Of a stretch of 44,452 bases of DNA, positions 1 to 44,168 are shown piece by piece. Location: positions 7,616 through 52,067 of the forward strand of contig CAYOYS010000002.1 in assembly GCA_964408255.1 (NCBI GenBank), in the 5' to 3' direction. This DNA is from an uncultured Christensenellaceae bacterium. Lineage in GTDB: Bacteria; Bacillota; Clostridia; Christensenellales; CAG-1252. The stretch's first letter is position 1. Each line of letters starts with the position of its first letter. The notes beneath the pieces were generated by a model that saw nothing but the letters and a program-made list of their open reading frames with translations, ran no database searches and was not told where the DNA came from. Both the position numbers and the translations under genes were made by a program.

Positions 1-3000
1 GTAAATAGGAACGCGCCTTCGGTGTGAGCGATATCGATGCGTCCGCCCTCGGATATCTGAATTAACCGCGCGCCGCCCGTATACAGGACATGCTCCGCCG
101 GGTCGAGTCCCGCATCTTCTTCCTCAGTTATCGTAACGCCCGCCTCGTCTTGGTAATAGACAACCCAACAGTTCGCTACACCCGTGTCGGGGAGCAACTT
201 GAGTTCGGTATAGATGTTAAGAATCAACGCGAGGTTGCGGATTGCGCCGTCCGCCGCAAGCGAAATGATTGCGGTCGTCCCGCCGTAGCTTTCATCAGCG
301 AACACTATTGAGTTGAACGCGCCGTCGAATACTCCCTCGAATGAGGTTATTGCATTCAATGTGCCGTCTACAATAATCGAAGTTCCGAGCATAAAGGTCT
401 TGCCCTCGCTCTTGTTCTCTATCTCGTTAACGGCATAAGCCAAAACGTTCCACTCCGAGACATTATCAATCACTTTGGGTGCGTAGTACGATATAACGGA
501 AAGTCCCGCCGTATCGCCATGATAGCCCGCGTCGTAGCTGTGCGTGACTGTCAAATCATCGTGAATCTCGTAACCCATGAAGTAATAATCGTCGTTGTCC
601 GAAGAAAGGAAGTCTATTTTGTTATTCAAAAGGTCAATCGACACCTCGATTGTGCCGTTGCTATGGTACATGTAACTTGTGAAGCCCGAATCGATAGTTA
701 AATTATCCGTTAGCAGCCAAACGTTGATTGCGTTAAGGATTGCTTGCGCATTGGCGCTACCTTTGACTATCACTGCGGAGTTCTCAACCGAGCCCGTGCC
801 GGAAGCTACGGTAAGCGTCACATTTTCTTCCGTGTCGATTATAAATATCGTATTGCAGACTGTCGAAGCTAAGCTTGCAAATATCGTCTTGGATGTAGCA
901 ATCGCGCTCAAATCAAGCGAATGACCTCTACCGTCGAACGTCCCCGTGTAGTTTGTAACGGGGATAAAGTCGGCGGGAAGAACTATATCTGTGCCGAGCG
1001 TAACATCACCCGCGAAGCCGTGGGCAATGGCTGTGCTAAGGTATGAGAACTCCTCGGGAGCGTTAATCTCGTTGATTGAGGTAACGAACATATAAACATT
1101 TGAGTCGTTCGAAGATACATACTTATCATAACCTTCAATGTTCAGCGCTTCGCCGACTTCGTTGTACCACACAAGGAACTTGCTTGCATCAGGCGCTTCA
1201 ATCGTCAGTTCGACGTCTTCACCCTCAAGTGTAACCGCTGTGTCCGCATCTATTGCGACAAGGGTGTTCATTCCCGCAATCTCATAAGTGACCTCGGGCG
1301 CTTCTTTGGCAATAAGCCAACAATTAGTCAAGACACCCTCGAACGAATTAGCGAATCCCGCTCTGCCGTCGCTTACTCCTACGACTCTAATAATGGATGC
1401 CGTCGGAGCAATTGCCTCCGCAATGACCGTCTCGGCAAGGCAACTTGCATCATAAGCAATAATAATGTTGCTCAAAGCGCCGGCAAAAGTCTTAAACAGC
1501 GAGTGTTGCGCCCCGCTTACCGTCACCGAATAGCCTGCGCCGTCAAGACTTCCTGCAAAGGAAGTCGCCGCAGTACCTATCTGTACAAAGCCTTCGTCAA
1601 TCACGATATCTGCGCCAAGCTCGAAGGAGTATTCCGCAAGCGTAAAGCTGTTGGCAACGGCGGCGGCAAGCGCTAATAATTCGGCTTTTGACTCGATAAT
1701 GTTCTTAATGAACACTATCTCATAGTCCTTGTCATTGACAAGGCTTATCGTAAAGTCGTTGCTCAAAAGCGCTCCCGAACTGAACCAGCCCGCGAACACC
1801 TGCCCCGAACCCTCGACGGCGGTCGCATCAATTCCAGATGCGCCGAACGCGTAGCTCATAGCCGCCGTTGCGTTAGTGAGGATTATTCCGACGCCCGAAG
1901 ATGTAACGCTCAAAGGATTATTCGTGACAACGAATACCTTTTGCGCTGTGAATGACGGCGATGCTCCGCTTGCAATAATCGCCGAAGCGTTATTATTAAG
2001 CACGATAACATTAGTTAAGGTTACCGTAGCCGAAGCAGTGAATAGGGGAATCGACACCGCGTTATGGTCGAAGATAATGTTCTTAAACGTGCCTTGTGAC
2101 GCGCCGAATATGCTCGTTGCGCCCTCTGAAATTGTCAAAGTATGCCCCTTGCCGTCAATTGCGCCCATAAACGGAGTTGCGCTCTTGAAGCCGTTGAGCG
2201 CGATATCAATCTCGAAGTCCGCGGTGATATTGAAGCTTTCGCCGTAGCTGTCGTACCGCATCATCAGCAAGTCGTTGAGTACAAGTAACTTATCCAATGT
2301 GTCGATATTGGTGGACAAAAATTCCGCCGAATACTTGTTGAGGTTAGCTTGCTCAGCGAAGAAATCGTCGTATTGTGAGATAATTATATCTCCATTGCCC
2401 CAGCCTGCGAACCTGACATCTTCCTTTTCCTCTGCCTTAAATACGATAGAGGATTGCAAGGAATCATAATTGAAGGTAAGACTTCCGTCTCCGTTGACAA
2501 CGATAACCTTATAAGTGTTGTTGCCTGTGGTAACCGCTTCCATATTGTTGCCGCTAATTACCCATGCATCGATGTTGGCGGTCTCGGTACTATACAAAAT
2601 CGGGTTGGATACCGTTATGCCCTTTGTTATATAAACGGCGACCCGCTCTATCTTGCCCAAAACTGTGCTGTTATATACCGTGATGCCGCCCGACTTGTTG
2701 CCCGTAATCGTCCTGTCATACTGTACCGCAAGATTGATAATCGCTCCTCTATTGTACGCGAATATCGAACTGTACTCTCCGAATGTAACATCGGCGCCTA
2801 CCGTTATCTTATGGTACTTACCGTCAAAGGTAAGCGATGGGTCAAAGGGTCGCGCTTCGGTGCCTATCGGAATATATTCTCCTTGCGGCAAAGTAATATC
2901 GCTGCCAAGCGAATATTCGCCGCTAAATACTTGAACTCCGATATTGTACGCGTACGAGAATGCCTTGAGCTCGCTACCCGAATTGAAAGTGCGTCTTGTC

Positions 3001-6000
3001 ACCGCGTTGGCGCTTATGCTTGTCAACCCTGCATTAGAGGTATATACGAGTTTGCTAGGGCTCTCTTGATAGCTAATATTCTCAAGCAAAACTTCCGAGG
3101 GACAGTTCATGTTTTGGAACATAGTAATCTTGCCGTCCTCATAAAGGCTCGCATAGAATATGATATTGCCCGCTCCAATTATCTCGGTAATCTTTGCGCT
3201 GTGGCTTACCGCGACAGTTGCGGAGTATGTCATATTATTTATTACCGCAATCTTAGAATTGAGCGCGGTATTGTTGTTGTATACCCAAACATTGCTTATG
3301 TTGTTCTTATTCGGACTGTTGTCCTTATGTATGGAGATTGCCGAATCCGCAACCACTGCCGCCTTAATGTTGACTAGCACATCCGACACCTTGTTGACGT
3401 TGATACCAACTATTCCGCCCGCGCTAATCGTCGTTGCACTCAAGTCGGGGTGACCTATATTCGCGGTCGATTCAAGGGTGATATACAGCCTAGAAATAGT
3501 GCCTGTATTGCTACCCGCTACGCCACCCGCGTAACAACTGACCGTACTCTCGGATAGAATCTTTCTTGATACTAACAAATCAGTCGTGTGGATTTTGTTG
3601 GTGTTACTGCCGGCAATGCCGCCCGCATAAGCGGAGCCGCTCCCTTTTGCCTTAGCGTAGACCGCCGCTTCCGTCGTAGAACCCGAATGGCTAATAACGC
3701 AGCTTACCGCACCGTCCGTGACAGTACCGCCGACTTCGCCCGAGTTGGTGCCGGCAACACCGCCCGCATAGGCATTATATGCGTCATAAGATTCACTGCG
3801 GATTGTGCCGTTGTTGGTAAGCTTGGTATCGAGTATTCGTCCTCCCGCGGCATTAATGCCCGCTACGCCGCCCACGTTTACACCGTTAAGACGGCAGTTA
3901 GTGCCGATTGTAACGGTGCAGTTCTCGATAGTGCCGCCGTTTTCGCCGGCGATTCCGCCGAAGAACCTCGAAACCGTAAGCTCGGCGCCCGATTCGCTAT
4001 GCGGCGTGCTGTTGCCGAAATTGGCAAGACCGGCGTTGCTTTTGTAAACCACGTTGAGATTCCTAATCTTTGCGCCGTTCGCAACGTACCCGAACAAACC
4101 CAAATAATTGGATGTAATCAGCGAATCGTTGGTAAAGGTAATAGTCTTGCCTTGACCGTCAAATGTGTGCTTAAAGCCGTAGTCGCCCGTTGCCGTCTTT
4201 GTGCCGATAGACACGGTCAAAGGCTCCATGTTTGTGAACTCAATATCGTTCTGCAGCGTGAACAGTATATTGTCATTATACAGACCGTTGTTGACGGTCT
4301 TAGCCATCGTAATAATATCTTGCACCGTCCTTAGCTGCGTATTGATATAAACGACGCTGACAACCCTACCCATTATGTCCGAATTGGGCTTGAATGTGCC
4401 CTCTTCTTTGTTGCTGTTACCTATTTTGTCGGTAATCGGAGCATCGTTGTTGAGATACCAGCCGTCGATAATCGCGCCGCCGTACTCGGTTATGTCAAAG
4501 AACAGTATCGAATTGGCGCTGTCGATAGAAACGTCGAGTTTGCCGTCGCCGTTAATCTGAAGCACGTTGACAGAGACATAGCCATTGCCTACTGCGGTGA
4601 TTGCGGGAGGTACGGGCGAGATGAGCCAAGAGTTAATCGCGCTACCGCTTATATCACCTACAAAATCTCCGCGGTACAGCAGTCTAATTGCGCCTTTGCC
4701 GTTGTCTACTGCGCTTATTGTACCCTCGTTGTACACTACGCTATTCCTTAAGGACGCGCGCGAACGACCCACCAAACCGCCGACGGCAACGCTAGAGCCG
4801 CAAGCGACAATAGACGCGCTTGACGCGATTCGAACTATTACTCTGTTGATAATTGCGTACCCGTCGGACAAGCCGGCTATGCCGCCCGCAAAAGTGTCCG
4901 CTTCTTCATCGGTGTCCGCTTCTATTGAGCCTAGCACAAGAACGGTCGAGGCGATAATATAATCCTCGTAGCTGTCTTCGCCTGTTTTTCTCACAAGTTT
5001 TTCGAGATAATCGCTCCGAGCCTGCTTCCAATACACTTCTTCGCTCTGCGAGCTTCCTATAATGTTGCCGGTGTTTCGACCTACCAAGCCGCCTGCGTAT
5101 GTACTTGCGGCAAGCAACGCGCCCTCTTTAATTATAACAGCTGAGTTGGTTATATTCCCCGAATTATAGCCCGCGAGTCCGCCGACCGTGGCGCCCTTAA
5201 TCTCTGCATTCGAATCGATAACCACAAGGGTATTCTCTATTGTGCCGCCATTATATGCGGCAATGGTGCCGACAGTACCGCCGAATTCGTATATCTTGCT
5301 GTTGAGAATAACCGTCATATTGCGTATTACGCCCGAACTGTAACCGAACAACGGAGTGCCGTTAAGCAATGTGATAGTATAATAAACTCCGTTATGAGAG
5401 CCTGTAAAGGTTCCCTTGAATTGCGTTGTTGCAGTGCCTATTTTGACCGGTTGTAGTATTTCGATGTCCGCGGCTAACGAGAATTCTAGATTCTCAAAGC
5501 TATAACCGCCGATATTGACATCTGCCTCGATAGATTCAAGCTGACTTACCGTAGTGATAACGGTAGACATAATCAAAACTTCAAAGCGGGAGTTGATTAT
5601 ACCCGGATTCGCCTTGTAGCTTCCGTCCGCTCCCGTAGTCAATGGCTCGTATCTGCCCAACTCGCTATTATAATGCGAAATGCCGAGCGTAGACGAAAGC
5701 TGATTATCCTTAGAATAATTACCGTACCAGCCAAGAACGCTGAATCTGCCTTCGCCGATAGAGGTGTTGTTTTCCATAACAACAATATATTCATCCGAAT
5801 CGGCATCATACTCGAAACATAACGCAAGCGCGCCCATTCCTATGACTTTCATCACGTTAATGCTCGAATCGCCGATAGCCTCATTGACCCTTCCGTATGC
5901 AGGAATGTTGTTGGACGCTTTGGTAATAGCCCACGAGTTATATACAAGGTTGGTATCATCGTAGCCGATACCGATACCACCCGCGCCCGATATACCCGAG

Positions 6001-14645: not shown

Positions 14646-14651
14646 AATTAA

Positions 14652-14657
14652 CTCCTC
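14652..14657 (-). promoter_or_regulatory. Shine-Dalgarno site of gene 2 (GAGGAG, 6-nt spacer TTAATT to ATG)
   Basis: Plus-strand ctcctc at 14652-14657 reads GAGGAG on the minus strand. The ATG is at 14645. Confidence 0.85.
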
Positions 14658-14678
14658 AATAAATCATAGGATTATGCC

Positions 14679-14690
14679 ATCTTGCAAGAT
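14679..14690. promoter_or_regulatory. Perfect 12-bp palindrome ATCTTGCAAGAT, 34-45 nt upstream of the gene-2 start
   Basis: The sequence atcttgcaagat at 14679-14690 is its own reverse complement. It sits between the intercistronic stem-loop and the RBS. It may be an operator or protein-binding site; function unknown. Confidence 0.35.
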
Positions 14691-14693
14691 TCT

Positions 14694-14742: not shown

Positions 14743-14917
14743 GTTGTTACGATACGATTTCGAACGGTGTCACAGTAGTTGTCACGGCACGATTTCGAAC
14801 GGTATCGCAGTAGTTGTCACGGCACGATTTCGAACGGTGTCACAGTAGTTGTCACGGCACGATTTCGAACGGTATCGCAGTAGTTGTTACGGTACGATTT
14901 CGAACGGTATCGCAGTA
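14743..14917. repeat. Tandem direct repeat, 5 x 35 bp, overlapping the last 10 codons and stop codon of gene 1
   Basis: u1 14743-14777 gttgttacgatacgatttcgaacggtgtcacagta; u2 14778-14812 gttgtcacggcacgatttcgaacggtatcgcagta; u3 14813-14847 gttgtcacggcacgatttcgaacggtgtcacagta; u4 14848-14882 identical to u2; u5 14883-14917 gttgttacggtacgatttcgaacggtatcgcagta. On the minus strand each unit reads T[AV][IT]PFEIV[PS] followed by TGA or TAA. Only u5 is in the CDS frame (ITAIPFEIVP-TAA, stop at 14889-14887). Every unit has a TTCGAA palindromic core. Confidence 0.95.
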
Positions 14918-38900: not shown

Positions 38901-41900
38901 CGAAGCCGCCCAACCCTAATCCGAGCTCAAAAGCCTCGTTGAGGTCGCCGTCAAAGACGCTGAGTCCGATTCCAATACCGATATCCTTAAGGTTCAAATC
39001 AAGAGTAGCAATAATATCGGGAAGCTGTAAGCCCGACAAGTCAATCGCCAAAAGTGAAAGCGCCGCCGTCAGGAAGTTGCCCTTGGTCGCTATGCCGATT
39101 ATGCCGCTTTCGCCGTCAATGGTAACGGAGCCGAGAATAGCGTTGATAAGCGCCATGATATCAATATCAAGCGAGCTTTCTTCGACTTCGCCGCTCTCAG
39201 GCTCTACGGGCGTAGAAGTCGGTTCTTCGACTTCGCCGCCGATTAACGAGTCGATAAGATTTTTGACCGTATCGAGAACGCCCGTTCCTTCAATTTTGAA
39301 TTTCTTGGCGCCGATGCTCGTTAAGTCTATATAGAGCGCATCGTCTACACTGTCATAATATATACCAATTATCGTCCCCTCTATATTCGATATCTCTATC
39401 GCAAGGCGGCAATAATCAAAGTTCGCTATATCAAGATAGACTTTGAAACCTACGGTTACGGGCAAGTTGAGCAGTTCGCCAATGTCGCCTGTACTGCCAA
39501 TATAAATGGATAGTTGATTGAGAATCGAGACAATCGTGTCGCCGAGTCCTACCGCGCCTGCTATATGCGCAAGTGTCTCGGAAAGCGAAACATTGGGATT
39601 GCCCTCACTATCCACGCCAAAGACTCCGGTACGCAAATCGAGCGCAACAGTCGCCGCAAGATAAATTCCTTCTATCGCAAGCTTGCCCGTCTCATCGCTT
39701 ATCGGAATATATTCCAACTCCTCATGCGCGTTGGCGAACGCATACTGCGCGATATTTGAGCTGCCGAGCGAAAGCATTATGCCGTTGAGCCGCAAGGTAA
39801 GATTTACGCCCGCCGCGCCCAAGCCAACCGATACCGCGTAATCGGTGGTAAGTCCGACGCTTATCGAGTCCAAAAACTCGCCAAAATCCAAGCCGCCGAT
39901 GTCTATGCCAAGCTGTGCCAAAACATCAGCTATAAGCACACCCGAAATGATTACAGAGATGCTGTTTTGGTTAAGTTTGAGCGCGACAAGCTTTTCTCCG
40001 AGAGAGAGGGGCTCGCTCGCTCCCGCCGATTCCTCACTGTTGTTCAGCAAGCTTGAAAGCAGCGAGGATACATCAAGACCGTTGTAGCGCACCGCGCCCA
40101 CTCCGAATAAGGGCGCTTTTGCATAAACAGACTGCGATGACGCGTTGTAGTAGAGAAGCAACGCAAGACTCGTGCGGTTATGCGCGGCGTCCGTAACGTA
40201 CACCCTCAGCAATAGTTCGAGTTCGTCAAGAATGTTCAAAACGGTAGCACTATTGCTGAAATCTACCGCTTCGAGATTGATATTCGCCATAAGGTCGAAT
40301 GACAATCCAAGGTGTGCGGCTTGGGTAACCGATATGCCTATATCCGAGCCGGCAAGCAATGCTTTCACCAAGTTTTCGAGCGTTGCTCCTTGGTCGCCCG
40401 AATTGAACGCATCGAGATGCAAATCAATCTCGCCGGTAAGCGCAAGTCCCACCTCGTTAAGCGCCGCAAAATCAAGCTCGGGATAGTCCGCGACTGCGTC
40501 CAAGCCAAGATTTTGCTTTTCAAAGCTCGCGCTTATCTTATCAATACCAAAAGATATGTAGTTATTATCATCTTTTGAAAGCTTAATCCCCACGCCTACA
40601 CCGTCAATAAAATTGACATAGCCTTCGGGAGTCAGCTTGTCAAATATGTCGCCAACATCGTAGCCAAGTATTGCAATTAAGGTCGAAAGCGCGGTGTTGG
40701 AAAGCGCAACGCCCACTCCTCGCGCGTTGATGTTGATTGCGCTCAATATGCCGATATTGGACAAAAGTGTATCCATTATTCCGTCAAGCGCTCCGTCCTC
40801 CGCCGCCGCCTGCTCATCGAACAAGCCCGAGAGAAGGTCTCCCACATAGAATTTCATATGCGGAAGGTTGAAGCCCTTGACGCCGTTTGCGGTAATTGCA
40901 CCAAAAGAAGCGTTGATATATACATATGCTCCGTCAAAATACAATGTAAGTATGCTGTCTCCGTTCATAAGTATTTCGGCTTTGAGCTCCATTCTGCCCA
41001 ATATATCGTTCAAATCGATATTTGCGCTGATTTTGAGTCTGAATTCTCCGGAAATATCGCCTTCCACAAGAATATCAAAAATCAATCCGTCGAGAAGCTC
41101 CGCAATACTGTCGGGCAACACGCTTTCCGCAATGCCCAAAAGCGCGGCAAAAGAGGGTCTATCAGCTTGCCGATTGTCTTCCCACGCATATTCCAATAAA
41201 AGCTCGGTCGAAACATAAATCTCTTGAATTGCAGTGACATCGACATAATCGTCTTGCCAAGCCACCGATGCCGGCAGAATCTGCCGTTTTTCAAGCGCAA
41301 GCACAAAGTTGTGGATGCGCACAGAAAGATAGGGATTGACATAATCGGGTGTGCCGTCAGAGGTGTCGAGAGCAACAATCAGACCCAGCTCAAGCCCCTC
41401 CGAGGTCTTTATGTAGACCTTGCTACTTTCGTCAAGGCTAATAATCCCGTCCGCCTCAGTACCTAAAAGCAACTCAAAAACGGTAGCAATAAGTCTTTCG
41501 CCGATATATACTGCCGCCTCGTTCTGGTCAAGCGAAATGCCGCCCAAAACTCCGCCCAAAATTTTGATAAGAAGCTCGGGGGTCATTTCGCCGTCCTCTG
41601 CGCCGGATAGCGTGGAGGGAATAGCGCTAGCTAAAGCCTCATCGTCAAGCAGCCCTCTCAGCATGTCTTCAAGGTTGATTTTGTACATAAATTTGGGCAA
41701 TCCGACGCTGCCGTCAATAGAAATGCCCGACGCATCCACGAATATCGCACTTTCGTTGGGAGCGTATTCGCCATAATAAATCGCAAGTATCTGATGTGTG
41801 CGGTCACGGAATCCTCTATCGTATACTCTTACTGCAATCTCGATTTTGCCCAGGTCGATATTGAGTCCGGCTCCCGCAATAATGTCGGATAGCTTGAAGC

Positions 41901-44097
41901 CGTCAAAGCCGACGTTGACATCAAAAACAATGTCAAAACCGCCGTCAAACGGGTTCTTTACATTCAAAACGCAAGCAAGCTCGGCAATAATACCGCCGAG
42001 CGCGTCGTATAGGTCAAGCGAAGTAAGGCTACCTGAGTTCATGTCCACCGAAAGTTCGGCAGAAAGACTTACCGCGGATAAAGAATCCAAGTCGAGATAG
42101 GAATTCTTATTGAGGGTATCTACATTGATTGCGAACTCGGGTCTTAAGCCCAATGTCGCTTTGGGCATCTCAAGCTTGAGCGAAAGATTGTCATTGAGCT
42201 TGAGTCCGACGTCCAAATAAACGCCGAACTCACCCTCAAGCAGTCCGATTTCAAGACGAATCTCTCTCAATATGATATCTTCATCAGAATAGGTTGTGAC
42301 TAGACCGCCAAGGATTGCGTCAAAAATAGACATCGTTGTTTCTGCAGAGGCAATTGCCGCGTCCAATTCCGCAATTTCGCCCGCTGTCATTCCCGTCCTT
42401 TCCGTCGCGTTAAGTTTGTCAAGGTTCTGCTTTTGCGTATAGCCGATACCGTTAATCAGCGTCTTAAGCGTGGCTCTGTCAAGGGTAACCGCAAGCGCCG
42501 TTCTGCCGTTCGGACCCTTTTCAAGTGTGCCGAGAATCGCTACTATGAGTTTCATAGTATCAAGTTGGACATAAGTAACGTTGCTCGCCGCGGAAACCTC
42601 GAAAGTAGCGGTTCTTGCATAATTCGCAATAGCCTCGTCGAGATTTGAGCCGCCGTAAGCTGCTATCATACCCGCTTCCGCCGCCTCGCCCGCCTCGCCG
42701 GTCAAAAGTCCGCCGAGCAATCCGCCCAACAGATTGTTGAGAATACCCGAAAGGTTGATACCGCCGTATTTTAGCTTGGGCAACCCAATAGGAGACAAGT
42801 CGACGAGTATCATCTCGTCCCTGCCTCTATACGCGATATTTGCGACTGCCCCGCCCGAAAAATCGGACAGAGTAAGCAAGATAACGTTCGAAGAATTATT
42901 CGCAAAGTCAAGCGCGACTTGAAGTCGTCCGCTAAGTCCCATGGAGGATTCTCCGAGACTTATCGTCTTGCGCCCGAGGTCACCGAGGTCGTCAACGCCG
43001 AACAATAGCGCAAGAATTCCGCCGATAGTGTCGCCGACTGTAACCGTCTGCGCCACTTTATTCTCGTACATTAAGTTAAACTCTATATCAAGATTAAGCA
43101 CACTGAAAGTCTCGTAATCGGCAAAGCTCGGGAATGCGATATCGGGCATCGCATACCTATCCGTGCCGTAGTATTCTGCACCCGCTTTGACTCCCAATCC
43201 AAAAATGCCCTTGCCGTAGCTCGCGTCAAGGCTCATATCGGAAAATACACCATTCTCGGTTCGGATACTGAAATCAAGCGCGATTTTATCCAAAGGATAA
43301 CTAGTAATATTCGCAAGTCTTAGTCCGAAAACGGGATACAGGATATCGTCGAGATTTATTCCCAAAAATGTAGGGATTATCGGAGCGACTGTCTTAAGTA
43401 TATTGAACATTCCGGATATAAAAGTGGAAATGTCAGTCTCAACATAAAGCTCCTCTGTTGTGCCGGTGGTGGTCAGCGTCGCAGTCTTAATAAGACCGCT
43501 CAAAACGCCCGAAAGCATTGAGCCGAGATTTATCCCGGCGACATCAAGCGTCTCTATCTTCTCGACAACTCCGCCGAGCATGCCCGTTGCCGAAGAGGCG
43601 AGTTGTACGATTTGCTGAAGGTTGACTTCTTTGATTAAAAGGTTGGGGCCGTTTTCACCCGCGATATCGAGATAGAATTTACCCGCATCATAGTAAAGTC
43701 CAAGCACGGTATCGTTATTGACGCTTTCTTTCAATTCGAACAAAATATCAGATTTTGTGTCGTCAATACGGTTATATTTCGCTTTGAAATTTATGTAATA
43801 CTCTCTTGTCTCGTCGTCGATTGTCAACGACAGCCGTTCGGATTGAAAGCTGAACACAAGATACTCTTCATTCTCGTCAGATGAGAGCGAGTCGGATGCA
43901 AATGCTATCACATATTGCAAAAATTCGAAAAAATCGCTTGTGTCGAGCGTCTCTACAACCGATGTCGTCCCATTATGGTTGGTGTCCGCGCCCGGTTTGA
44001 TTATTATCGGGTCGATGTTTTTACAAGCGACAAGCCCGAATGTTGCCAAACATATAATTGTAATCAAAATTGTCAGAAAAACGATGCGTTTATTCAT
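14887..44097 (-). CDS. Giant (9,736-aa) predicted surface lipoprotein: ~21 novel ~270-aa modules + ~20 Ig-like (Big_4-like) repeats + MBG-like C-terminal domains
   Basis: The ORF track gives one open frame of 29,211 nt. The ATG at 44097-44095 is preceded by GGAGGT (44107-44102). I re-derived the C-terminal codons ...ITAIPFEIVP and the TAA stop at 14889-14887 from the DNA. In-frame spot translations at 42.72, 41.64, 40.83, 39.24, 38.40, 36.48, 35.94, 30.42, 22.86 and 16.02 kb match the supplied protein. Confidence 0.97.
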   Translation of the reverse strand: MNKRIVFLTILITIICLATFGLVACKNIDPIIIKPGADTNHNGTTSVVETLDTSDFFEFLQYVIAFASDSLSSDENEEYLVFSFQSERLSLTIDDETREYYINFKAKYNRIDDTKSDILFELKESVNNDTVLGLYYDAGKFYLDIAGENGPNLLIKEVNLQQIVQLASSATGMLGGVVEKIETLDVAGINLGSMLSGVLSGLIKTATLTTTGTTEELYVETDISTFISGMFNILKTVAPIIPTFLGINLDDILYPVFGLRLANITSYPLDKIALDFSIRTENGVFSDMSLDASYGKGIFGLGVKAGAEYYGTDRYAMPDIAFPSFADYETFSVLNLDIEFNLMYENKVAQTVTVGDTIGGILALLFGVDDLGDLGRKTISLGESSMGLSGRLQVALDFANNSSNVILLTLSDFSGGAVANIAYRGRDEMILVDLSPIGLPKLKYGGINLSGILNNLLGGLLGGLLTGEAGEAAEAGMIAAYGGSNLDEAIANYARTATFEVSAASNVTYVQLDTMKLIVAILGTLEKGPNGRTALAVTLDRATLKTLINGIGYTQKQNLDKLNATERTGMTAGEIAELDAAIASAETTMSIFDAILGGLVTTYSDEDIILREIRLEIGLLEGEFGVYLDVGLKLNDNLSLKLEMPKATLGLRPEFAINVDTLNKNSYLDLDSLSAVSLSAELSVDMNSGSLTSLDLYDALGGIIAELACVLNVKNPFDGGFDIVFDVNVGFDGFKLSDIIAGAGLNIDLGKIEIAVRVYDRGFRDRTHQILAIYYGEYAPNESAIFVDASGISIDGSVGLPKFMYKINLEDMLRGLLDDEALASAIPSTLSGAEDGEMTPELLIKILGGVLGGISLDQNEAAVYIGERLIATVFELLLGTEADGIISLDESSKVYIKTSEGLELGLIVALDTSDGTPDYVNPYLSVRIHNFVLALEKRQILPASVAWQDDYVDVTAIQEIYVSTELLLEYAWEDNRQADRPSFAALLGIAESVLPDSIAELLDGLIFDILVEGDISGEFRLKISANIDLNDILGRMELKAEILMNGDSILTLYFDGAYVYINASFGAITANGVKGFNLPHMKFYVGDLLSGLFDEQAAAEDGALDGIMDTLLSNIGILSAININARGVGVALSNTALSTLIAILGYDVGDIFDKLTPEGYVNFIDGVGVGIKLSKDDNNYISFGIDKISASFEKQNLGLDAVADYPELDFAALNEVGLALTGEIDLHLDAFNSGDQGATLENLVKALLAGSDIGISVTQAAHLGLSFDLMANINLEAVDFSNSATVLNILDELELLLRVYVTDAAHNRTSLALLLYYNASSQSVYAKAPLFGVGAVRYNGLDVSSLLSSLLNNSEESAGASEPLSLGEKLVALKLNQNSISVIISGVLIADVLAQLGIDIGGLDFGEFLDSISVGLTTDYAVSVGLGAAGVNLTLRLNGIMLSLGSSNIAQYAFANAHEELEYIPISDETGKLAIEGIYLAATVALDLRTGVFGVDSEGNPNVSLSETLAHIAGAVGLGDTIVSILNQLSIYIGSTGDIGELLNLPVTVGFKVYLDIANFDYCRLAIEISNIEGTIIGIYYDSVDDALYIDLTSIGAKKFKIEGTGVLDTVKNLIDSLIGGEVEEPTSTPVEPESGEVEESSLDIDIMALINAILGSVTIDGESGIIGIATKGNFLTAALSLLAIDLSGLQLPDIIATLDLNLKDIGIGIGLSVFDGDLNEAFELGLGLGGFGIAFCEPQGILPSDTASYCDWTDLNFGFEARAQAEFAIDSAYAAAINQYIAEQVVGQSFELFVKDNASGDTLVARLGFDFAFNVHLESLIDTRIELFMSVYYMSAGGELFANDNRLITVYYNSHDKLDAATNSYVESLYFIYGNTDASEGKAVRIDNLGIIELVLNLLGSPASSAPAASSAPAAAAENESPLSPIISLLVSDGLVVGVNGGVISYLLEVLGLSVLLPPLEGVSVTVSADLMQLSLDFNENSHLALRLEDYALIFKDSLAELPRYGAPITSMRDTATGLQDLGQLYFSTSMSVKLGLAELDGTEELVRYANYQNVLQLLLTADSDREYYYGVDIELGISGLDLTNLSIDAYTGSNLADNIDSIIDKMRLELLVMIRDKNVTEETTDGITTEYPEGKPVIGIYYLSDVTDVIYIHVPALELKLAIRNALDLREILYNLLSSVNTAAASEPESADGFGVLQIIKFLERVRLTESAVTVELSSQILSRAILLAGIDLSLPEINTLIGLGTLGDIFSGGETYIQSGIGIHVNTLFNEGYAIDIAIGDFVLEFREDLLPVLIEIDANNPEAADEAGNFFGFLSEYVGLDSIQAYISLSVDLEFGIAANNNPNDTNALRFEKLLDEFLGASDFEINITDILSGCYRLTIEASFNFAEGANHLYGLSLYMSLYEVGEDASGETLEKIMSIYYSRGTLGINLEGLLGVEPFQLDLDLGELLGGLFASEASDIDYAEASGDIVGIDGGITGLLNSISGVCGIYIGDEDIALTISGEILGTVLVMLGYNDYLPSIAKGVTLKNSDEMNELSDGTYTAEITDTEGGAHSFAFTKSIIRNKYSLALGTANIIRITLSGNGIDTILNSESAWSKYFIINRADGTIEFANTAEFNALPLGGYTVSVQLDNGTEPSVFSMDKSIKIYTYDSIDLTTFEIESITIKQGANIVATLASGAEWGKYFAINPTGGEFRVALGSSTGMYFALKEDTYFKVTLKELVFKGKYQEIEKRESYISNIEYLSVSTALEVDIHADAGINYAVNDMLGSVLSSLMDGALAELKIELDINEIIGMNYLVMLQANIRVDQYAEIPVDLGGSEFAIQVYEVDSTGATKVLGNLKFAFYYVGTEADGVIYVNIPYFDLMLKIDEIAFSSLIDNLLKSLLNLGGDEIAGAGEANALDMGGILGLFTGLTLNNSGAQIGFAGDMFNAALSLAGMNDLNMPAVKADTSKLSVYLDGAPTVTIDKGGKLLEYTKFIDLLIDFDVPPSGVDVFSAYINFVLYNTEIGFNRAISYDVPLGYYQSLTEAKALFFKLSGTVELDTPIDNSINLQGLGELFGIESELALNIAASYQRLDFNLEMNIGLGGDNIAELGKSGGLSLDELLINLVQDLYLYFDIVRTVQAGDYHEQNTLLELYYYNNYIYADLSALGLPKLAIEISLSDLLKILFGSTTGGETAGAADDALNIAFNPEGLCVGASVNFIDYALGLLGVNLDAMFTLNALVSLNPVNEGDPIIRLDFGAVGGNVPNGEGGYSDVTTLSMSINKPVLSLGGHITKTVDDAADYAFVNSLEFIHLSADATIEIAIDAVDENNAYYLTDLLQSLFVNEEDRIPVILTGNVRKTLGISFAVNISLVDISMSELYISVCEIVKTGSLTNREEMITLFYDGNGYLYISAPILEDNLNIRIEFDIASLLSGTGLQEMLDNLNIADMIYSLIYGENYAAETSDVSPAENDNNNIFELVTAIVSSLNLTDSGEFVIKFTTTIFHEISERFLGGIGLDMPSLKALDVRFDFFNTNFGIDMVWNKKPGTENDPRFKLDISNYSFRGTKQEIAFDGNRYNTTDDFKHLSIKASGRLDYDFADGLYSIGGLFETLIPGLNIPVTMQGIDGFFEVILEAKIGIVNIMDSEVNLSIYYPSNDPDNPNLLLSVYFDIYRGEIYIDIPWFDVPKILIAGIDLSSLLKDALAETEESGAADLGDAGNYLLLVGRVINKIIISDGSDNYAEGLHIVYNNDMLELILGELLSEIQLVLPVQITDMATIFSISDQYISFNAEFVNNNELPDGGQNPETAGYVSFLGELNTIEFNDTSIRPERTQDVTEYKSIYDFNMPTGDNLMLENIYFESKFYLDAEMKEQSLDLQALLMYILSEDFTLDITDYIDLRFEVELKANLNLKNIGRSELMLKIILIEYPDTVNEKKALFVRAYYVGLDNALYLDAPMIGLYNIKVALNLGELLSGITDTATAMDMTPEEENIWRAELISGMFDNILITKNGITITSSYSFLANVFEIMMKEVLPFEDTPFTRLKLVINLLERDPVTNAILPFFHNSETGESNFNAKLMLEVYDRSMIYEDGVLKDPLPEEAKSVIEMGMGDMMFVAGKQHIDFFEIDTASGNEKDTGAEKMDYQLFSEMSKLTFNLRIQFEESPGSVDYFADIGKVLNALFPGLEAMATFTTKTFETNMVFTLNVSASIDLNNLSDSEIFISLIEGGAINGTVERRMGTIYYNGPDNGTLYIDMPALNVNKIKYVGLDLAALLPANGLDSLFSGGSNTSSAEDGDNDEGVFLEDFNATFKTIFKNISRITVSQSAGVQISIKTALISIFAQALGYNVDVDALDEIGELKVGLRLSVEDGLGINLQASLDAVDGTQPPFFRISIDGIGLKLSKDTLTIPADIASQLANYSELTLDSKIALSISGQFDGRSEAGIYSLTNVISSLLEENIDFALGFEDSSISLQFNLLLNVDLGTIFNSFGGLNSLDINTLLLNNEILLEIIDVTDPMIPSLLLSVYVTDGIAYVNIGILKSAPPIKLDLISLIGMGREITDEETPGQSHAESAQYNSEMHVDYASTTPQLISATRIYHYLEGESYYLVDLSNTSIDTIRLVNEDETVTLTSEEWNEYFNIVEKNGLTYFYFTEFARTQSGDNKLTPVNGILFYDLELLSFITRTQSTDDTLTLNLVEREIISVTLRTSPEADGVTLTSPEEWNQFISMQGVAASTTISLNSTAIGLGYTHLTVVTSNIIPSIIRSTNQYKMALKGATIQKVEFYKSSVFPIPDEAFATANGATEIAKYFTMATRGNVTYIAFNNTDEVRALNENGKYFEIRIYTSQGVLYMDSTISKKFVLDKNDSDGILYLILSLFGGIMATQDVSTLMLNNNTLMIIEEFFGIPLKGTSADEGYISVRLQNTLTKGGNFALSNVTSDITYEVEGLSAATVAKAVISNAVYDAELEFTGGDIADYFIIADNFVTVRNSDKVKKLNSGTWSFALYDASETMLYQNTFNKSVQAIGVIGVKYEELTFTIGLNNYSAKVGAENLLDYTSPVNNIVTKKVDGVTVIDDGEYSDIINDLNEVYVSTIIDFAIDIPANNISSLDDMFNPGGSLYNVGDNIASYIGNVLLALGFNREMLTGDYRLHLRVYLGSLDFANLALSDIKIYIKLEKRCYNIMLDGILYDDAFVDILTIYYDGANIFLNPNLETFRFLTAPPVYIAVQGSLEFWGITSEELAAASTPSRLVEDFAAAEDSFSIAGLINLLAGVTIGQGTVAMNLGKNFIGGLFAMIVPDMDEIEIEIDKFDLVVDVFNGAVTLDIAKYTKYNPSEAFLNTDGEPYEDYRTFILDDDVAKLFVTAQAMRNYPISDWTVTMYYEDGSTADFSLSFNGSGGSFSYGAKSGTFVASGNAPAELTGIYADFAAGKAISKIVMAVSQIDYLKAGAGTNPYFCFDIKEGELCLSDKINSMSTCGIFKLSLYNGANVLLGTLSLNRMSLVPTVTYDGVTTPIRYFDDCLCLDNYHLKANVTLSNIAKIRVEYDSDDMIYLSSFITDGDKLKIPKNLFDRFMDGEFKLALFGAGNVTLATIDLDFTGSTALASYGGETVSVYYYNGYAVIAIPSLAADIELSSVTRIGFAVADNILVRIALDNQGYNTQALIFRATIGEVELAFELPDRFKTQAQGGIAENGVYGSGGPYHANDEYKHYNVGIIASTRGLELSEFQRWNDLEFYIKTSIEFTYQLDTFDFDLFGANVTSGFGSLINTIAGSVVAFSGIDTTIRIDVEVKINADDPFLTEAIIKIHLLQYPGLPPIVIYYDGGGSSELSTLYIDLSSVGIDAFSIKLDLITEMRNWMNSFITAPEYVSPETESAPAEDARELDLTSMLPKLINSVGIGNNMLILLMNPDIINNLLAMFTIEAFFPQTEMYLQGKILRNFEDSFLKLSVFMPIEDKDHAVKAELIISDLKAVAYPARLNSDYLLSDAERLALYLDDLHMGQNNIFKGLTITDNGSDYTIGYDAATPISTLAKSSYFTADLRPNKDDAHKSWIDSKALQIKLSTTSYITLSGGTNASGENNGIDIDLTPTLASLLVLNPSMGDLIKLVIDNSTYNPATSSYVPTNMRLKIKIEAMLDLTEPRNTELLLEIIKEYEQGGTTKHYLLLGVYYVNATESLYLTLPIMDIDGLMITDIDLSGVLAGILGVNWASKAGAGETAGAGEDDSEWGLLSDLLGLDMEKIKNDYIGMINGVEGIDGAEFMLLVSQHRYGISLNFALVDMILNLAGVDNIILPKIITGDNTRESFDRVEVYFDSGDSDLQPGETVINQSSINVNLYIDKNGNESGLDTTNLDWVGLKIKLGGLNIALGESGGALELTKNNLSGIGGLDGTYLVFPHMSGTGASQYGGGTLVNRAIFANLGEYPNVLDINAFRLTLNGAITLETTADEGGKVNMLVDFLESTVADLLGVDKSAVVINRNCTDEWRYGIRIDAKIDFEHWENTQLLVEFGYRLTGESGINVLLIGLYYSAADNSVYADLSGMGLMKVKLMGLDIKAILKELAGLDLDGSLSIVSDLLESRLGVSNLGELIDKMLEEKEEKDLFGDIEDDDDSDPDPDPDPVIRGAVSAKMIINSYIKNNIQGTHVGIEFDTAMLQMLLGMLGLNFEVPEGVKLALDLSLCNGFDSLSVDVGAYDIIQSSGTVSMNNLNHVKLVFDEVKLGYGAGVTNILSGVNFGTYSGLNFGGLFGLPNNYSEPGISNILGSVIDALYPAGDGLKLTIMTNVAYVDKSGVSVVTGKGRSTDVLVTRIGSGDYVHGLKIDLGNTLLGGIVSGVSFFDNELYLDIDLGFIGQYSFAVAELDIRSLIKMSVNSDYDPIPPLVEEEEDGSGKITADDLAEGLKNPVLGITINLGSAGIGKSGEVDTNGSTPSISTIRLDLNPKLIGGVLAMLPPKIFSLLKYERDLPNNQQAYMMYRAILKKLIGDSGFLKWLVDGLVGNTVIDLLARLLPFPELTDQSVCFVVVELNDTQLANGDYGMFRKVYLRTYTETSNEYFDIKIENNGIKLAAVVNSSPVLGSGQNIDDRTIIDVFELDYNKNGIVDYMENLPDNAIVTRYLNGTVVAGSETETDNVSMSWADSMFLIDPTAGLSGPVPMVNEATEFQNYQIEGYVMNDVHKVNVKLPYSAARLVKTMTLPSGTGSVVVPLIAGAGLTLPMIVDANKVDELIANLPKIIYVTMTDGYGKNELIKTFDGTKGTGDSIVEWDTSQLKDSYSGGSFVLGLTFGDKKVKSYKVEIPITVRNLALNKVVFPSEDGTYENGASSLIFNPYDEIKLPKQVWATFGNTEPKLYNIKWSISESDIKPSYTGITYTVSAEIGNLEIGYYKFEGISIIIKPWMLVDYKLKNPQGQYYDLDLTFDPYSYVMIGKEALADSKNPNMYPSYLWLHYEGDDDASGNPNYILTPVQWNLRGVNNTYEGNTSSRATFRITGNTEEETARIENAGYQTLEVPVTIIDATFDSARLEMTDLASYIDPLYFIYTKKDNEGNIINYCKYVKGEAPRDMFGNEITSDVELAKYQSSLVVWDMINNKIANPLDAMSYPKTVTAMYKNGTQKTFEAELSSNGNTYLNTGGVIWATSGLKLNYMGGIYYAALTIGNAAGGYQTVNIPINIANRTISSINLKEVRASYVFDPYTENATDEIYYPENGGNLLYVTQTEDSVRSNVIFTSQSSDYYPIDWNLSGINQTYNGGTYYAVAQVGSKDAGYQNIRHEVVIQPKIIKSVQLEAFVFDPYNTEHTPFLKDTEYDGAGNVVKQSPYPKTAMVRFTDDSNYTFSGIRWDLTSLYAIWNCVGGETFITAKIGNDYGGYQNVQIKVTVENKEITDYELNELNTIIFDPYAGIDPRLNAAYPELVDVVFKNGNKGEVNIIWDINNVINGYKGYKSKAGDSLFQEFIIFGNVGNSSVGYQTKEITVRVLNREIESIIPVEITIDPFSSDSLPTVVTVQFKDGSTRSMPVEWIGKNYDLKVLNASSEGEYVSGTVNARIGDYIGGYQTKVIPISVIKKTVTSLTNGNEIVSLRVGTGENEALTTDTFVYYVDGIKYTRSVYIEIDPWEDTTKLVYATVIGEGLDAETYISYNDMPSRFNTSFLQDGTQRNLKAIWDYSYIEGCNYEGKEFYSGLNNNTKGAILTLGNSTVGYFELEFKVRVISRKVRSLDNNPLIYTFDALDETGNPVNPRLLTNIVDDAYNTSSYPNQLWFEFVVTEGGVSDGIAKIVSWVKRGDSASITLGNSKYDYQTFNYSVMKVERDVTIDSETLIAIDPYNVSLPDSLTVKIGAAKVWEVDSYRVVTPEEYPDCAGKDLMLKADWSKADINYHYTVSGIEQTVNVYVGDDNTGIKAVEVKVVIMERIVIAVEKDEFEVDPYDYAALPSEISVLYENGMSGYLELQANLMNATKVTEAEAAFYGIPVNNNEFFYQGGYYILNASVGTRRGGYQNVRLLLKVANRTIRGVTSSRLLNDKGEFEQKITPYGGTNGATTLPSNVIDVEFFDKDASGSYIRGTLSVLWSYANINYHYKGGSSKAFVLIGNAQGGYQKVEVNIVIHRMVATRADAYDANGNTYYYNPYDANCPLPSHVGVYFNDGGVTARMEVLECIVDRSSIKYNSDTVIAKIRVGNERSGYQWINNVPLNVTDMTVVSYDPTYLTVNPYSAGLNVASDLTILNANGTPLQIRAYYGDGSKSLMFNVRLKEAFVYACDYDGIFDAKNFKVNVEIGNSVGGYQSTFLVEGEPTPITVNINVVSESIVKLYVGAQEFATHYGLESPIHPYAPPAFALGYISVELEGGAVLNTGYGIEIKSVVYTDTDNNVINVLGYIGGQIRVRVEVGNAKAGYKYIYYDCTLAKKEIDTVAFDNKWVDPYVYVLPETLLVTYKTGGTEALPVEFYYAGTDTRFTDDMVNYTGGSFNLEARIGTALGGIQKFSYKLNVSQKIISTLNNIELLQIDQFLKELNLPSGSFTVTFEDGTQRVFEVDTAKIRYAADGVVGFSFANAKVGAWDFSEVSLDLKGGLYNAKLTLGNSIGGTQTVQVPVKVRKKTVNTANMQYVVSKTAQKIIVDDLSDRLEIGLGEYFNLPNYLWLLYSDGTAIDVMVEWNFDNIAHDGLGNYRYGNYEVSTVVFGQKIAVTVIVTADRLVLGDNLQDFYSVKRGSTIEYPDSIKQIVVKKDGASFVLDDTPYFDVVWSDRPYLAIEDTYLMKGTINCGSMTWVRDVEVQVYSSYINHIESVSADVELPVGGELTASMFPTIAVNVAKGKTTVSKTVRANWVLVSRIYNGVTTPYAGLSENDFGAADTAMIGAKYVFEPRIYDRNGNIAKLADGTTLIYTVTISGNVAEIEAKVHFFRDMFGEQATEFIYAYGKSKHVGFACDEGVAVTAIEYFRITLVEGVAVYESVKLVEYNADGSIANETGVGIGLLNAGDYQVRVYVEGFNILGDKVLEHTIEFGYIIEKLDIGDMIVVADTTQAYEENASGVPVEKMILANVQGGLATVSVEYYDGETLLATPPSAVGLYTAVVTVNSANYKGTRSVPFRIIAPIVIKVAGEPDVVIYDGMYLKAYDLPGGSSVCPNDYFALRWYYTKDGTDYPLILSKPIKLGMCEYTDGAYTLVLKAGLLIAYKESVDESNTEFNSVEGNVSYVKLDFDASLFTNVKIKYYLGTTLIAQVEYKDGVAETSEDLPSVAGMYSVTIEYSGEFFSGSITAIPFEIVP
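14890..15995 (-). other. C-terminal region with three MBG-like (Y-x-G ... AG-x-Y-x-V ... NY-x-G ... F-x-I) domains; no LPXTG, no terminal TM helix
   Basis: aa ~9,369-9,736. Motif strings: 'LNAGDYQVRVYVEGFNILGDKVLEHTIEFGYIIEK', 'VEYYDGETLLATPPSAVGLYTAVVTVNSANYKGTRSVPFRIIAP', 'VEYKDGVAETSEDLPSVAGMYSVTIEYSGEFFSGSITAIPFEIVP'. The call rests on motif-level resemblance to MBG (YGX-type) domains of large adhesins; no HMM was run. Confidence 0.45.
15996..22890 (-). repeat. Array of ~20 diverged ~95-130-aa Ig-like repeats (Big_4-like) with an [IV]-G-[ND]-x2-[GS]-G-Y-Q signature
   Basis: aa ~7,070-9,368. Each unit follows the pattern ...[IV]DP[YF]...LP..V.V.[FY].[DN]G.....V.W......Y.GG.Y.....[IV]GN..GGYQ..V.V.V..[RK]. 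Examples: 'IDPFSSDSLPTVVTVQFKDGSTRSMPVEW...ARIGDYIGGYQTKVIPISVIKK', 'LTIGNAAGGYQTVNIPINIANR', 'AKIGNDYGGYQNVQIKVTVENK', 'ASVGTRRGGYQNVRLLLKVANR', 'VLIGNAQGGYQKVEVNIVIHR', 'VEIGNSVGGYQSTF', 'LTLGNSIGGTQTVQVPVKVRKK'. The 'LP.TV.V.y.DGs...v.V.W' core is the hallmark of bacterial Ig-like group 4 domains. Confidence 0.6.
22846..22881 (-). other. Single EF-hand/dockerin-like Ca-binding-loop motif DYNKNGIVDYME at the junction of module array and Ig array
   Basis: aa 7,073-7,084, verified from the DNA (TTT GAG CTC GAC TAC AAC AAG AAC GGC ATA ...). It fits D-x-N-x-N-G-x-V-D-x-x-E but fails the last position of the PROSITE EF-hand pattern (N instead of a hydrophobic residue). Confidence 0.3.
24295..24342 (-). 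repeat. Hyper-acidic linker DIEDDDDSDPDPDPDP including an in-frame hexanucleotide (GACCCY)x4 repeat
   Basis: aa 6,586-6,601. Plus strand: agggtc ggggtc agggtc agggtc (24295-24318), then gga and atc x4. It is preceded by EEKEEK (24355-24375). Confidence 0.9.
27345..28090 (-). other. Insertion cluster 3: ~250 aa of small beta-sandwich-like domains interrupting one scaffold module
   Basis: aa ~5,337-5,585: 'NYPISDWTVTMYYEDGSTADFSLSF...TNPYFCFDIKEGELCLS...GIFKLSLYNGANVLLGTLSL...LSSFITDGDKLKIPKNLFDRFMDGEFKLALFGAGNVTLATIDLDF'. This module is ~0.6 kb longer than the 0.8-kb base period. Confidence 0.5.
29075..29350 (-). other. Insertion 2b: single ~90-aa beta-sandwich-like domain
   Basis: 'ALSNVTSDITYEVEGLSAATVAKAVISNAVYDAELEFTGGDIADYFIIADNFVTVRNSDKVKKLNSGTWSFALYDASETMLYQNTFNKSV'. 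It shares the [DE]-x-x-x-YF-x-I signature with the other insertions. Confidence 0.45.
29535..30405 (-). other. Insertion cluster 2: ~290 aa, about three ~95-aa beta-sandwich-like units with a W-x-[EQK]-[YF]-[FI] signature
   Basis: aa ~4,565-4,855: 'VTLTSEEWNEYFNIVEKNGLTYFYF', 'VTLTSPEEWNQFISMQGVAASTTISL', 'NGATEIAKYFTMATRGNVTYIAF ... GKYFEIRIYTSQGVLYMD'. It lies directly after the linker at ~30.45 kb and before a normal anchor A ('ILYLILSLFGGIMA...EEFFGIPL'). Confidence 0.5.
35900..36500 (-). other. Insertion cluster 1: ~200 aa, two ~95-aa beta-sandwich-like units with the same W-x-K-Y-F signature
   Basis: aa ~2,535-2,732: 'LSDGTYTAEITDTEGGAHSFAF...ITLSGNGIDTILNSESAWSKYFIINRADGTIEF...GGYTVSVQLDNG' and 'ITIKQGANIVATLASGAEWGKYFAINPTGGEFRV...TYFKVTLKELVF'. 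Both boundaries were verified by in-frame translation at 36480 and 35940. Confidence 0.5.
44023..44097 (-). other. Lipoprotein (SPase II) signal peptide with lipobox L-V-A-C; lipidated Cys25 predicted
   Basis: MNKR (basic), then IVFLTILITIICLATFG (hydrophobic), then LVAC|KNIDP. The Cys25 codon TGT at 44025-44023 was checked in the DNA. Confidence 0.8.
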
Positions 44098-44101
44098 AAA
44101 T

Positions 44102-44107
44102 ACCTCC
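44102..44107 (-). promoter_or_regulatory. Shine-Dalgarno site of gene 1 (GGAGGT; GGAGG is 5 nt from the ATG)
   Basis: Plus-strand acctcc at 44102-44107. The minus strand reads CTGGAGGTATTTATG. Confidence 0.9.
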
Positions 44108-44139
44108 AGCCGACTCCCGTTAAGGAAAAAGCTACTACC

Positions 44140-44168
44140 ATTTTACTAAAGTAAATGATTAATGTCAA
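44140..44168 (-). promoter_or_regulatory. Near-consensus sigma-70/SigA promoter: -35 TTGACA (44168-44163), 17-nt spacer, -10 TAAAAT (44145-44140)
   Basis: The minus strand reads TTGACA-TTAATCATTTACTTTAG-TAAAAT-GGTAGTAG. The predicted TSS is ~44133, giving a ~35-40-nt leader to the ATG. The promoter lies in a visibly AT-rich 355-bp non-coding region. Confidence 0.65.

Follow-up and report, generated by a model that had tools for sequence, protein, structure and literature searches.

A linked pair of genes for putative giant surface proteins in an uncultured Christensenellaceae bacterium

Results

Two co-directional giant genes occupy the locus

We have analysed a stretch of 44,452 nucleotides (nt) from an uncultured Christensenellaceae bacterium (GenBank assembly GCA_964408255.1, contig CAYOYS010000002.1, positions 7,616 to 52,067), referred to below as the window, which carries two very large genes that are both predicted to encode surface proteins. 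The list of open reading frames (ORFs) and their translation place both genes, which we call gene 1 and gene 2, co-directionally on the minus strand, with an intergenic spacer of 241 nt between them (14646-14886). The ORFs run for 29.2 kb and 14.6 kb, respectively, and at a G+C content of about 48% for the window they are therefore not due to chance. Gene 2 has 4,881 codons without a stop and is still open at base 1, so that its product has at least 4,881 amino acids and its 3' end lies outside the window. The positions of all features are collected in Table 1.

The original prediction, which was made from the letters of this DNA, described more than 14,600 codons in two co-directional genes with a gap of 241 nt, and our count of 14,617 codons agrees with this. 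It also remarked that no secretion, sortase or regulator gene is found in the 44 kb; this is true but trivial, because the two ORFs take up the window save for 355 bp upstream. ORFs of 166-307 amino acids are present on the plus strand, antisense to both giant genes (at 2454-3377, 3588-4334, 12894-13664, 20854-21576 and elsewhere), and we take them to be side effects of the long coding strand and not genes. An Rfam scan of the whole window gave no match.

Table 1. Positions of genes, sequence elements and protein regions in the window.
Feature	Position	Strand	Description	Basis
Gene 1	14887..44097	-	ATG at 44097, stop at 14887-14889; putative giant lipoprotein of 9,736 amino acids	ORF list, translation
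Gene 1 promoter (predicted)	44140..44168	-	-35 TTGACA (44168-44163), 17-nt spacer, -10 TAAAAT (44145-44140)	Consensus scan, 11/12
Gene 1 Shine-Dalgarno	44103..44107	-	GGAGG	Read from sequence
Gene 1 signal peptide and lipobox	44023..44097	-	Residues 1-25, lipobox L-V-A-C, Cys25 at 44025-44023	Sequence
Gene 1 module array	22957..43875	-	About 21 diverged modules of ~280 amino acids, residues 75-7047	Iterated hidden Markov model (HMM)
Inserts breaking the module array	35773-36540, 28768-30420, 26869-28260	-	Residues 2520-2775, 4560-5110 and 5280-5743; unrelated to the module	
Gene 1 immunoglobulin (Ig)-like repeats	16639..22410	-	About 19 Big_4-like repeats, residues 7230-9153	Pfam and internal HMM
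Gene 1 C-terminal region	14890..16638	-	Residues 9154-9736, one weak MBG_3-like stretch	
35-bp tandem repeat	14743..14921		5.1 copies, alternating A/B variants	TRF score 288, 91% matches
GC-rich stem-loop	14695..14730	-	GGAGCGAATGCGGC / GCCGCATCCCTCC; -21.4 kcal/mol, no U-tract	RNA fold
Candidate extended -10	14671..14679	-	TGGCATAAT; lies 25 nt upstream of the ATG of gene 2, lacks a -35	Read from sequence
Gene 2 Shine-Dalgarno	14652..14657	-	GAGGAG	Read from sequence
Gene 2, 5' part only	1..14645	-	ATG at 14645; putative exported multi-cassette protein	Stop-free translation
Gene 2 N-terminal signal or signal-anchor	14535..14645	-	Residues 1-37, no lipobox Cys	
Gene 2 cassettes	3..12947	-	At least 15, residues 567-4881	Iterated HMM, alignments A7 and A8

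Gene 1 encodes a putative giant lipoprotein with an unannotated repeated module

We took as a lipoprotein signal a basic n-region and a hydrophobic h-region followed by [LVI][ASTVI][GAS]C within about 15-35 residues. The N-terminus of the gene 1 protein, MNKRIVFLTILITIICLATFGLVAC, has each of these parts, with MNKR as n-region, IVFLTILITIICLATFG as h-region and a standard lipobox, LVAC, that places the cysteine at position 25. This signal peptide is the sole strong hydrophobic segment of gene 1, and an N-terminal segment is the only type of strong hydrophobic segment in both proteins, as far as gene 2 is visible. Both proteins are strongly acidic, with net charges of about -691 for gene 1 and -192 for gene 2. 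From its sequence, the gene 1 product would be exported through Sec, lipidated on Cys25 and tethered at the outer face of the membrane.

The greater part of the gene 1 protein is an array of modules of about 280 amino acids that are only 15-28% identical among themselves (alignment A1). Each consists of a strand-rich first half, at the end of which stands a core like IYYD..LYIDL..GLPK.KI..IDL..LL, an acidic Ala/Glu/Gly linker and a second half of strands and helix. The three inserts that break the array hold repeats of their own, of about 100-120 amino acids, with a recurring motif like ..EWN.YF.I....G., and they have no Pfam match at E<=1. In the very acidic linker of module 20, EDDDDSDPDPDPDP, a CAGGGT hexanucleotide repeat (plus strand, 24294-24318) encodes a (DP)n run, SDPDPDPDPV, at about residues 6594-6601.

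No match to Pfam or NCBIfam was found over residues 1-7047, and PDB searches with the gene 1 protein and with the module profile gave no sequence relative either. We modelled the module with AlphaFold. A first model, for which the 21 internal repeats served as the alignment, reached a predicted local distance difference test score (pLDDT) of 57 and gave no fold match; a second, based on 68 modules from the family described below, reached a pLDDT of 71.7 and a predicted template modelling (TM) score of 0.56. The second model has a five-strand meander and a helix at residues 27-98, where the pLDDT is 85-96, and a second half of lower confidence. Foldseek found no significant match for this model in the PDB (best E 0.03, TM score no higher than 0.23 among the matches listed) and none in BFVD. 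We therefore leave the fold unassigned and, as the model is only moderate, do not claim that it is new.

Downstream of the modules, one Ig-like repeat at about residues 7962-8002 scores 75.5 bits against Big_4 (PF07532; threshold 22.1), and a further 18 Big_4-like copies emerge only with an HMM derived from the gene 1 protein itself. The two MBG (PF18887) scores in the C-terminal region, 17.5 and 21.6 bits, lie below the cutoff of 25. At its C-terminus (...SGSITAIPFEIVP) the protein has no LPXTG motif, no hydrophobic tail and no other anchor, and hence no sortase anchor was found there.

Gene 1 belongs to a small family of giant proteins

The first 2,000 residues of gene 1 had no relative in a first scan of genome contigs, in viral contigs or in metagenome contigs, and a word-indexed search of 5.8 billion proteins returned a single relative, P0001 (locus L001). 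With a HMMER profile we exhaustively searched 1.84 billion cluster representatives and obtained 139 proteins at E<=1e-3, 46 of them at E<=1e-30. Of the 139, 25 are 5,000-7,924 amino acids long, with up to 16 matched stretches per protein, and gene 1, at 9,736 amino acids, is the largest member seen. All named members that we checked are annotated 'hypothetical protein' and come from metagenome-assembled genomes (MAGs) labelled 'Clostridia bacterium' or 'Eubacteriales bacterium'. The loci of one subfamily are from Christensenellales, Christensenella, Catabacter and other Clostridia MAGs, and their source samples point to human (Hadza), chicken and roe-deer rumen. Literature searches yielded nothing relevant on giant proteins or lipoproteins of Christensenellales.

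Among the 72 members whose N-terminus looks like a signal, 66 carry a lipobox, and that of L001 is identical to the one in gene 1. Of the other six, five proved to be fragments or N-termini without a signal that had passed a crude filter, and the sixth has a lipobox-like MYAC. We therefore regard this as a family of giant lipoproteins, and the claim of the original prediction that gene 1 is lipid-anchored gains support both from its own lipobox and from that of the family.

Some distant members have neighbours of other kinds. At locus L005 a response-regulator/histidine-kinase pair (2136-4169) lies directly upstream of the giant lipoprotein gene, and a gene for an MBG-containing protein of 2,363 amino acids lies 17 nt downstream of it; the former hints that some family members at least may be under two-component control. 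SpoIIGA is encoded nearby, and a spore-forming Firmicute is therefore indicated. Downstream of P0116 there are three or four tandem paralogous genes for proteins of about 340-350 amino acids (L020, 12745-17263; L021, 7863-11185), which have signal or lipoprotein-like N-termini and no Pfam match; these form a conserved neighbour unlike gene 2.

Gene 2 encodes a putative exported protein with GLUG-like cassettes

The gene 2 protein starts with MKRTTKQQ, followed by about 30 hydrophobic residues that end in AAPVGA before an Asn. The original prediction saw here a cleavable-looking signal peptide. An export signal is indeed present; however, a hydrophobic stretch of this length is long for a cleaved signal peptide, and a signal-anchor is therefore equally possible. 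The signal is followed by a unique region of about 560 amino acids and then by cassettes of 200-550 amino acids, each with a conserved head (..L..A..N.G....F.L..DI......PIG....F.G.FDG.G..IT....GLFG) and a variable number of GGxAGxNxGxIxN turns.

When the protein was scanned in pieces, residues 3301-3700 scored 23.2 bits against GLUG (PF07581; cutoff 20.5) and another piece 15.2 bits. Scanned singly, one of 13 cassettes matched Beta_helix (PF13229; E 0.0012), and one gave a weak match to Peptidase_M26_N. A word-indexed protein search with the cassette profile A8 returned six short matches, of which five carry PF07581, which makes 'GLUG cassette' a reasonable name for the longer cassettes. Their sequence suggests that the cassettes are probably beta-helical. 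Gene 2 has no sequence relative in the PDB. A word-indexed search with its residues 1-2000 gave no match; the same index missed an orthologue at locus L002 that is 33% identical (BLASTP, 1,358 bits), and its silence on relatives of gene 2 is therefore not evidence of rarity.

A common origin of module and cassette was considered and rejected, as hhalign gave a probability of 0.07% for alignment A6 (module) against A8. We likewise rejected an origin from a phage or plasmid: neither protein had a plasmid match in tblastn, there was no match to PHROGs (the scan covered gene 2 and the C-terminal third of gene 1) and no relative of residues 1-2000 of gene 1 was found in viral contigs. Phage tail fibres or tailspikes were likewise not recognised in these PHROGs and viral-contig searches or, for the module model, among BFVD folds.

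The gene pair is conserved within one subclade

We then asked what lies downstream of gene 1 in its relatives. By phmmer, only three family representatives (P0043, P0088 and P0114) share its long Ig-rich C-terminal region, and in each case the downstream neighbour is a co-directional cassette-type gene. These make up every relative in the subclade of gene 1 whose 3' end is visible. In L002 (ENA ERZ27256818), a gene 1 orthologue that is collinear over residues 2785-9635 at 27-43% identity (about 35%) is followed after 94 nt by a gene 33.5% identical to gene 2 and collinear with it over 3,300 amino acids; the similar divergence of the two genes fits their co-inheritance. In L003 (ERZ16299686) a gene 1 relative of about 25% identity is followed after 134 nt by a gene with five cassette matches at 25-29% identity. 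The P0114 cluster is represented by L006 and L004 (Clostridia MAGs GCA_036653655.1 and GCA_036648595.1), where the spacer is 60 nt and the downstream gene encodes at least 4,332 amino acids with seven cassette matches.

It can be seen that order and orientation are identical in the three lineages, with spacers of 60-134 nt as against 241 nt in the window, and that collinear homologues of both genes occur in independent assemblies. The N-terminal signal of the partner varies, L002 having a lipobox (LLSAC) and the window, L003 and L006 having none. We found no cassette fused within a protein of the gene 1 family. On these comparisons we conclude that the pairing is conserved to about 25% identity within one subclade and is not general to the module family.

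In L002 the gene 1 orthologue is split by a single in-frame stop (9998-10001, near residues ~5860-5890 of the gene 1 protein), which lies inside a Cys-rich insert, ...CGCSEED-stop-VLRVVCNNQEGLVVCSDACTCTCH.... Gene 1 has no such insert and contains 0.3% Cys; similar Cys-rich inserts (CGCTCPDC..., CGCGCSSC...) are found in the module linkers of other family members. The stop could be a sequencing error, a pseudogene, a site of read-through or a real split.

The start of gene 1, the spacer and the question of a single promoter

The near-consensus -35 and -10 that had been proposed upstream of gene 1 are confirmed by our scan, and they are conserved in L001, a Clostridia MAG (GCA_009928745.1) whose protein is 65% identical to gene 1. 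An alignment of the two loci shows that the -35, the -10 and the GGAGG-ATG block are invariant, including the stretch GGCTGGAGGTATTTATGA at the ribosome binding site, on upstream DNA that is otherwise poorly conserved. Invariant hexamers on a diverged background are, in this alignment, a phylogenetic footprint that favours the gene 1 promoter.

Some 60% of the spacer is made up of a 35-bp tandem repeat, whose first copy coincides with the final 35 nt of gene 1 and thus supplies its last 11 codons and the stop codon. The two variants of the repeat alternate to give a 70-bp super-period, and three units amount to 105 nt or 35 codons, such that read-through of the TAA would end 35 residues further on at an identical ...TAIPFEIVP and stop. 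The spacers of L002, L003 and L006 do not contain the repeat, and slippage and assembly are both candidate origins for it.

The original prediction proposed that one promoter drives both genes and that the spacer has no canonical terminator and no convincing internal promoter. A consensus scan of the spacer did come up empty, with no sigma-70-like promoter and no terminator-like site, and both genes lie on one strand with a short spacer, as operon genes do, the distance being 241 nt here and 60-134 nt in the relatives. What was overlooked, besides the tandem repeat, is the stem-loop, which lacks a U-tract, and the element TGGCATAAT. Hairpins without a U-tract also lie between the genes in L003 (-18.1 kcal/mol) and in L002 (9 bp, at the stop codon); the L006 spacer has no such hairpin. 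Over its whole length the window spacer folds no better than shuffled sequence (z = -0.5), and with this value and no Rfam match a riboswitch or other known RNA was rejected.

The orthologous spacers contain promoter-like sites: TTGCAA-18-TATAAT, preceded by TG (TGGTATAAT) and with its -10 at 24 nt before the ATG, in L006 (10/12); TTGGCA-16-TATAAT in L003 (11/12); and TTGAGA-16-GATAAT in L002 (10/12). The window element has the same geometry to the ATG as that of L006, but without a -35. We conclude that the single-promoter proposal is unproven and that the comparative evidence leans against it in its strict form.

Discussion

The reading that we favour, with slightly better than even confidence, is that the two genes form a conserved cassette for two very large surface proteins that are inherited together, probably expressed together and have a role in attachment or aggregation. 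They would thus be a linked surface pair, and it is the physical association of the products and their function that we infer; this applies equally to the two-component apparatus of a stalk and an associated beta-helix array that the original prediction proposed. Sec export and processing by Lgt and Lsp leave lipoproteins tethered to the outer face of the membrane by an N-terminal diacylglyceryl-Cys. The gene 1 product would take this route and be held on the outer face of the cytoplasmic membrane by Cys25, and its roughly 21 modules and 19 Ig-like domains may make up an extended acidic fibre with the C-terminal region held at a distance from the cell. The gene 2 product would be exported by its N-terminal signal or signal-anchor and display at least 15 cassettes of the GLUG type; it may be attached to the gene 1 product, or through an anchor of its own, either N-terminal or at a C-terminus beyond the window. 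Transcription would start at the conserved gene 1 promoter, part of it probably reading through into gene 2, and the relative amounts of the two products may depend on the spacer hairpin together with a weak internal promoter. Both proteins most likely serve in attachment to cells or polymers, or in aggregation.

Several observations weigh against this reading. The synteny check that the original prediction had suggested was positive within the subclade of gene 1, where a cassette gene comes next after the gene 1 relative in all three loci, at 25-35% identity, but 15 other, distant family loci (L005, L007-L018, L019 and L020/L021) have none; the module family therefore does not need such a partner. 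For an operon spacer 241 nt is long, and it contains both a hairpin of -21 kcal/mol and a possible extended -10, while all three orthologous spacers have a promoter-like site of 10-11 of 12 on the coding strand. The module could be modelled only moderately and is matchless, and the term fibre is drawn solely from the repeat architecture. On the side of gene 2, a scan of the whole protein returned no Pfam family at E<=0.01, only 3 of the 13 cassettes scanned singly matched GLUG (best E 8.6e-7), and the C-terminus, where an anchor might be sited, is covered neither by the window nor by any related contig. The case as a whole is built from sequence and models.

The same promoter-like sites in L006, L003 and L002, with the window element in its L006-like geometry, would be expected if the genes encoded two independent giant adhesins, mere neighbours with their own promoters and separate regulation, physically and functionally independent of each other, whose adjacency has been kept by inheritance, as in other clusters of genes for giant surface proteins. 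This is a serious though less probable alternative, to which the strong intergenic hairpins of the window, L003 and L002 also lend weight, as does the lack of a cassette neighbour for most genes of the module family; in Apilactobacillus kunkeei, too, giant genes stand side by side and separate promoters have been discussed (PMC12863079). What it accounts for less well is that adjacency has outlasted divergence to about 25% identity in three lineages, with the same order and orientation and with spacers of 60-241 nt. Moreover, the window spacer has no -35 and an empty consensus scan, and none of the hairpins has a U-tract.

We consider it improbable that gene 1 encodes instead a long lipid-anchored envelope scaffold that organises the wall, or a conduit for hydrophobic molecules, of the bridge-like AsmA/TamB type, with gene 2 as its cargo or cap. 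Leu, Ile and Val make up about 27% of the modules, which have alternating hydrophobic strands, and the module model is beta-rich with short helices, as such a conduit might be; yet no AsmA, TamB, DUF490 or lipid-transfer family was found in Pfam or NCBIfam over residues 1-7047 and no fold match in the PDB, the C-terminal 2,500 amino acids are Ig-like and MBG-like, as is typical of adhesins, and an acidic low-complexity linker in every module fits poorly with a continuous groove. Still further from our expectation is that the locus is an artefact, either a mis-assembled repeat region or a pair of decaying pseudogenes. The source is uncultured, the encoded proteins are highly repetitive, the stop of gene 1 falls in a 35-bp tandem repeat and the L002 orthologue has an in-frame stop, but against these stand reading frames that are unbroken over their full lengths in the window and collinear orthologues from independent assemblies. 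Apart from the 35-bp array the ORFs hold only three short, low-scoring tandem repeats at the DNA level, and the internal repeats, being only 15-35% identical, cannot cause assembly collapse.

Returning to the linked pair that we favour, its closest analogue in organisation is the set of five consecutive genes, Giant1-5, of A. kunkeei, which encode extracellular proteins of 3,000-8,000 amino acids with signal peptides, imperfect repeats and a predicted beta-solenoid, and of which giant4 and giant5 co-diverge (PMC12863079). These are likewise consecutive co-directional giant genes of a Firmicute, with N-terminal signals and long imperfect repeats. The likeness is drawn from their published description, and there are differences: Giant1-5 have Sec signals for signal peptidase I and a C-terminal DUF5776, whereas gene 1 has a signal peptidase II lipobox and the unannotated module of about 280 amino acids, and gave no DUF5776 match in Pfam scans. 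Gene 2 resembles GLUG proteins (PF07581), among them streptococcal M26 IgA1 proteases with their N-terminal regions, in its GGxAGxNxGxIxN turns, but its visible part lacks a protease domain, and the motif lies inside a repeated cassette with a conserved head of its own.

With the 7,651-amino-acid adhesin of Mobiluncus mulieris (PMC10619420) gene 1 shares a size of several thousand residues, tandem Ig-like domains and presumed surface attachment; Embp of Staphylococcus epidermidis is another example of a giant Gram-positive adhesin (PMC9302970). Gene 1 differs from giant Ig-repeat adhesins in that it has no LPXTG motif or C-terminal hydrophobic segment, its anchor, if any, being an N-terminal lipid, and in that three quarters of it consist of a module absent from Pfam. 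In giant Gram-positive adhesins the anchor usually sits at the C-terminus and depends on sortase or on wall-binding modules, and typical lipoproteins have a few hundred residues. The n-region, h-region and lipobox of gene 1 are canonical for lipoproteins processed by Lgt and Lsp, but in size it is unlike them, as is its family, which reaches 5,600-9,736 amino acids. For a protein of nearly 10,000 amino acids, anchoring by an N-terminal lipid would be unusual.

Giant surface proteins and clusters of them are thus already known, and earlier work has noted giant genes of gut Clostridia, though these encode RCC1, beta-propeller, dockerin and similar domains (10.1101/2023.11.21.568195). The locus offers no mechanistic surprise as yet; new is a module that spans about 7,000 residues and lies outside Pfam, NCBIfam and the PDB. 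The family that carries it is small (139 clusters among the 1.84 billion representatives) and would consist of lipid-anchored giants in Clostridia, including Christensenellales. The profile alignments of the module (A6) and of the cassette head (A8) could be used to annotate such genes.

Christensenellales are gut bacteria of interest for health, and no molecular basis is known for their aggregation. It is tempting, though decidedly speculative, to suppose that the module has a new fold, from which megadalton lipid-anchored filaments specific to Christensenellales-like gut Clostridia are built, and that in the subclade of gene 1 the filament and its GLUG-cassette partner form a two-component appendage for cell-cell aggregation; flocculation and co-aggregation with methanogens have been described for Christensenella (PMC7002349). 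The pairing of the two genes, kept to about 25% identity, offers a testable hypothesis of functional coupling between them.

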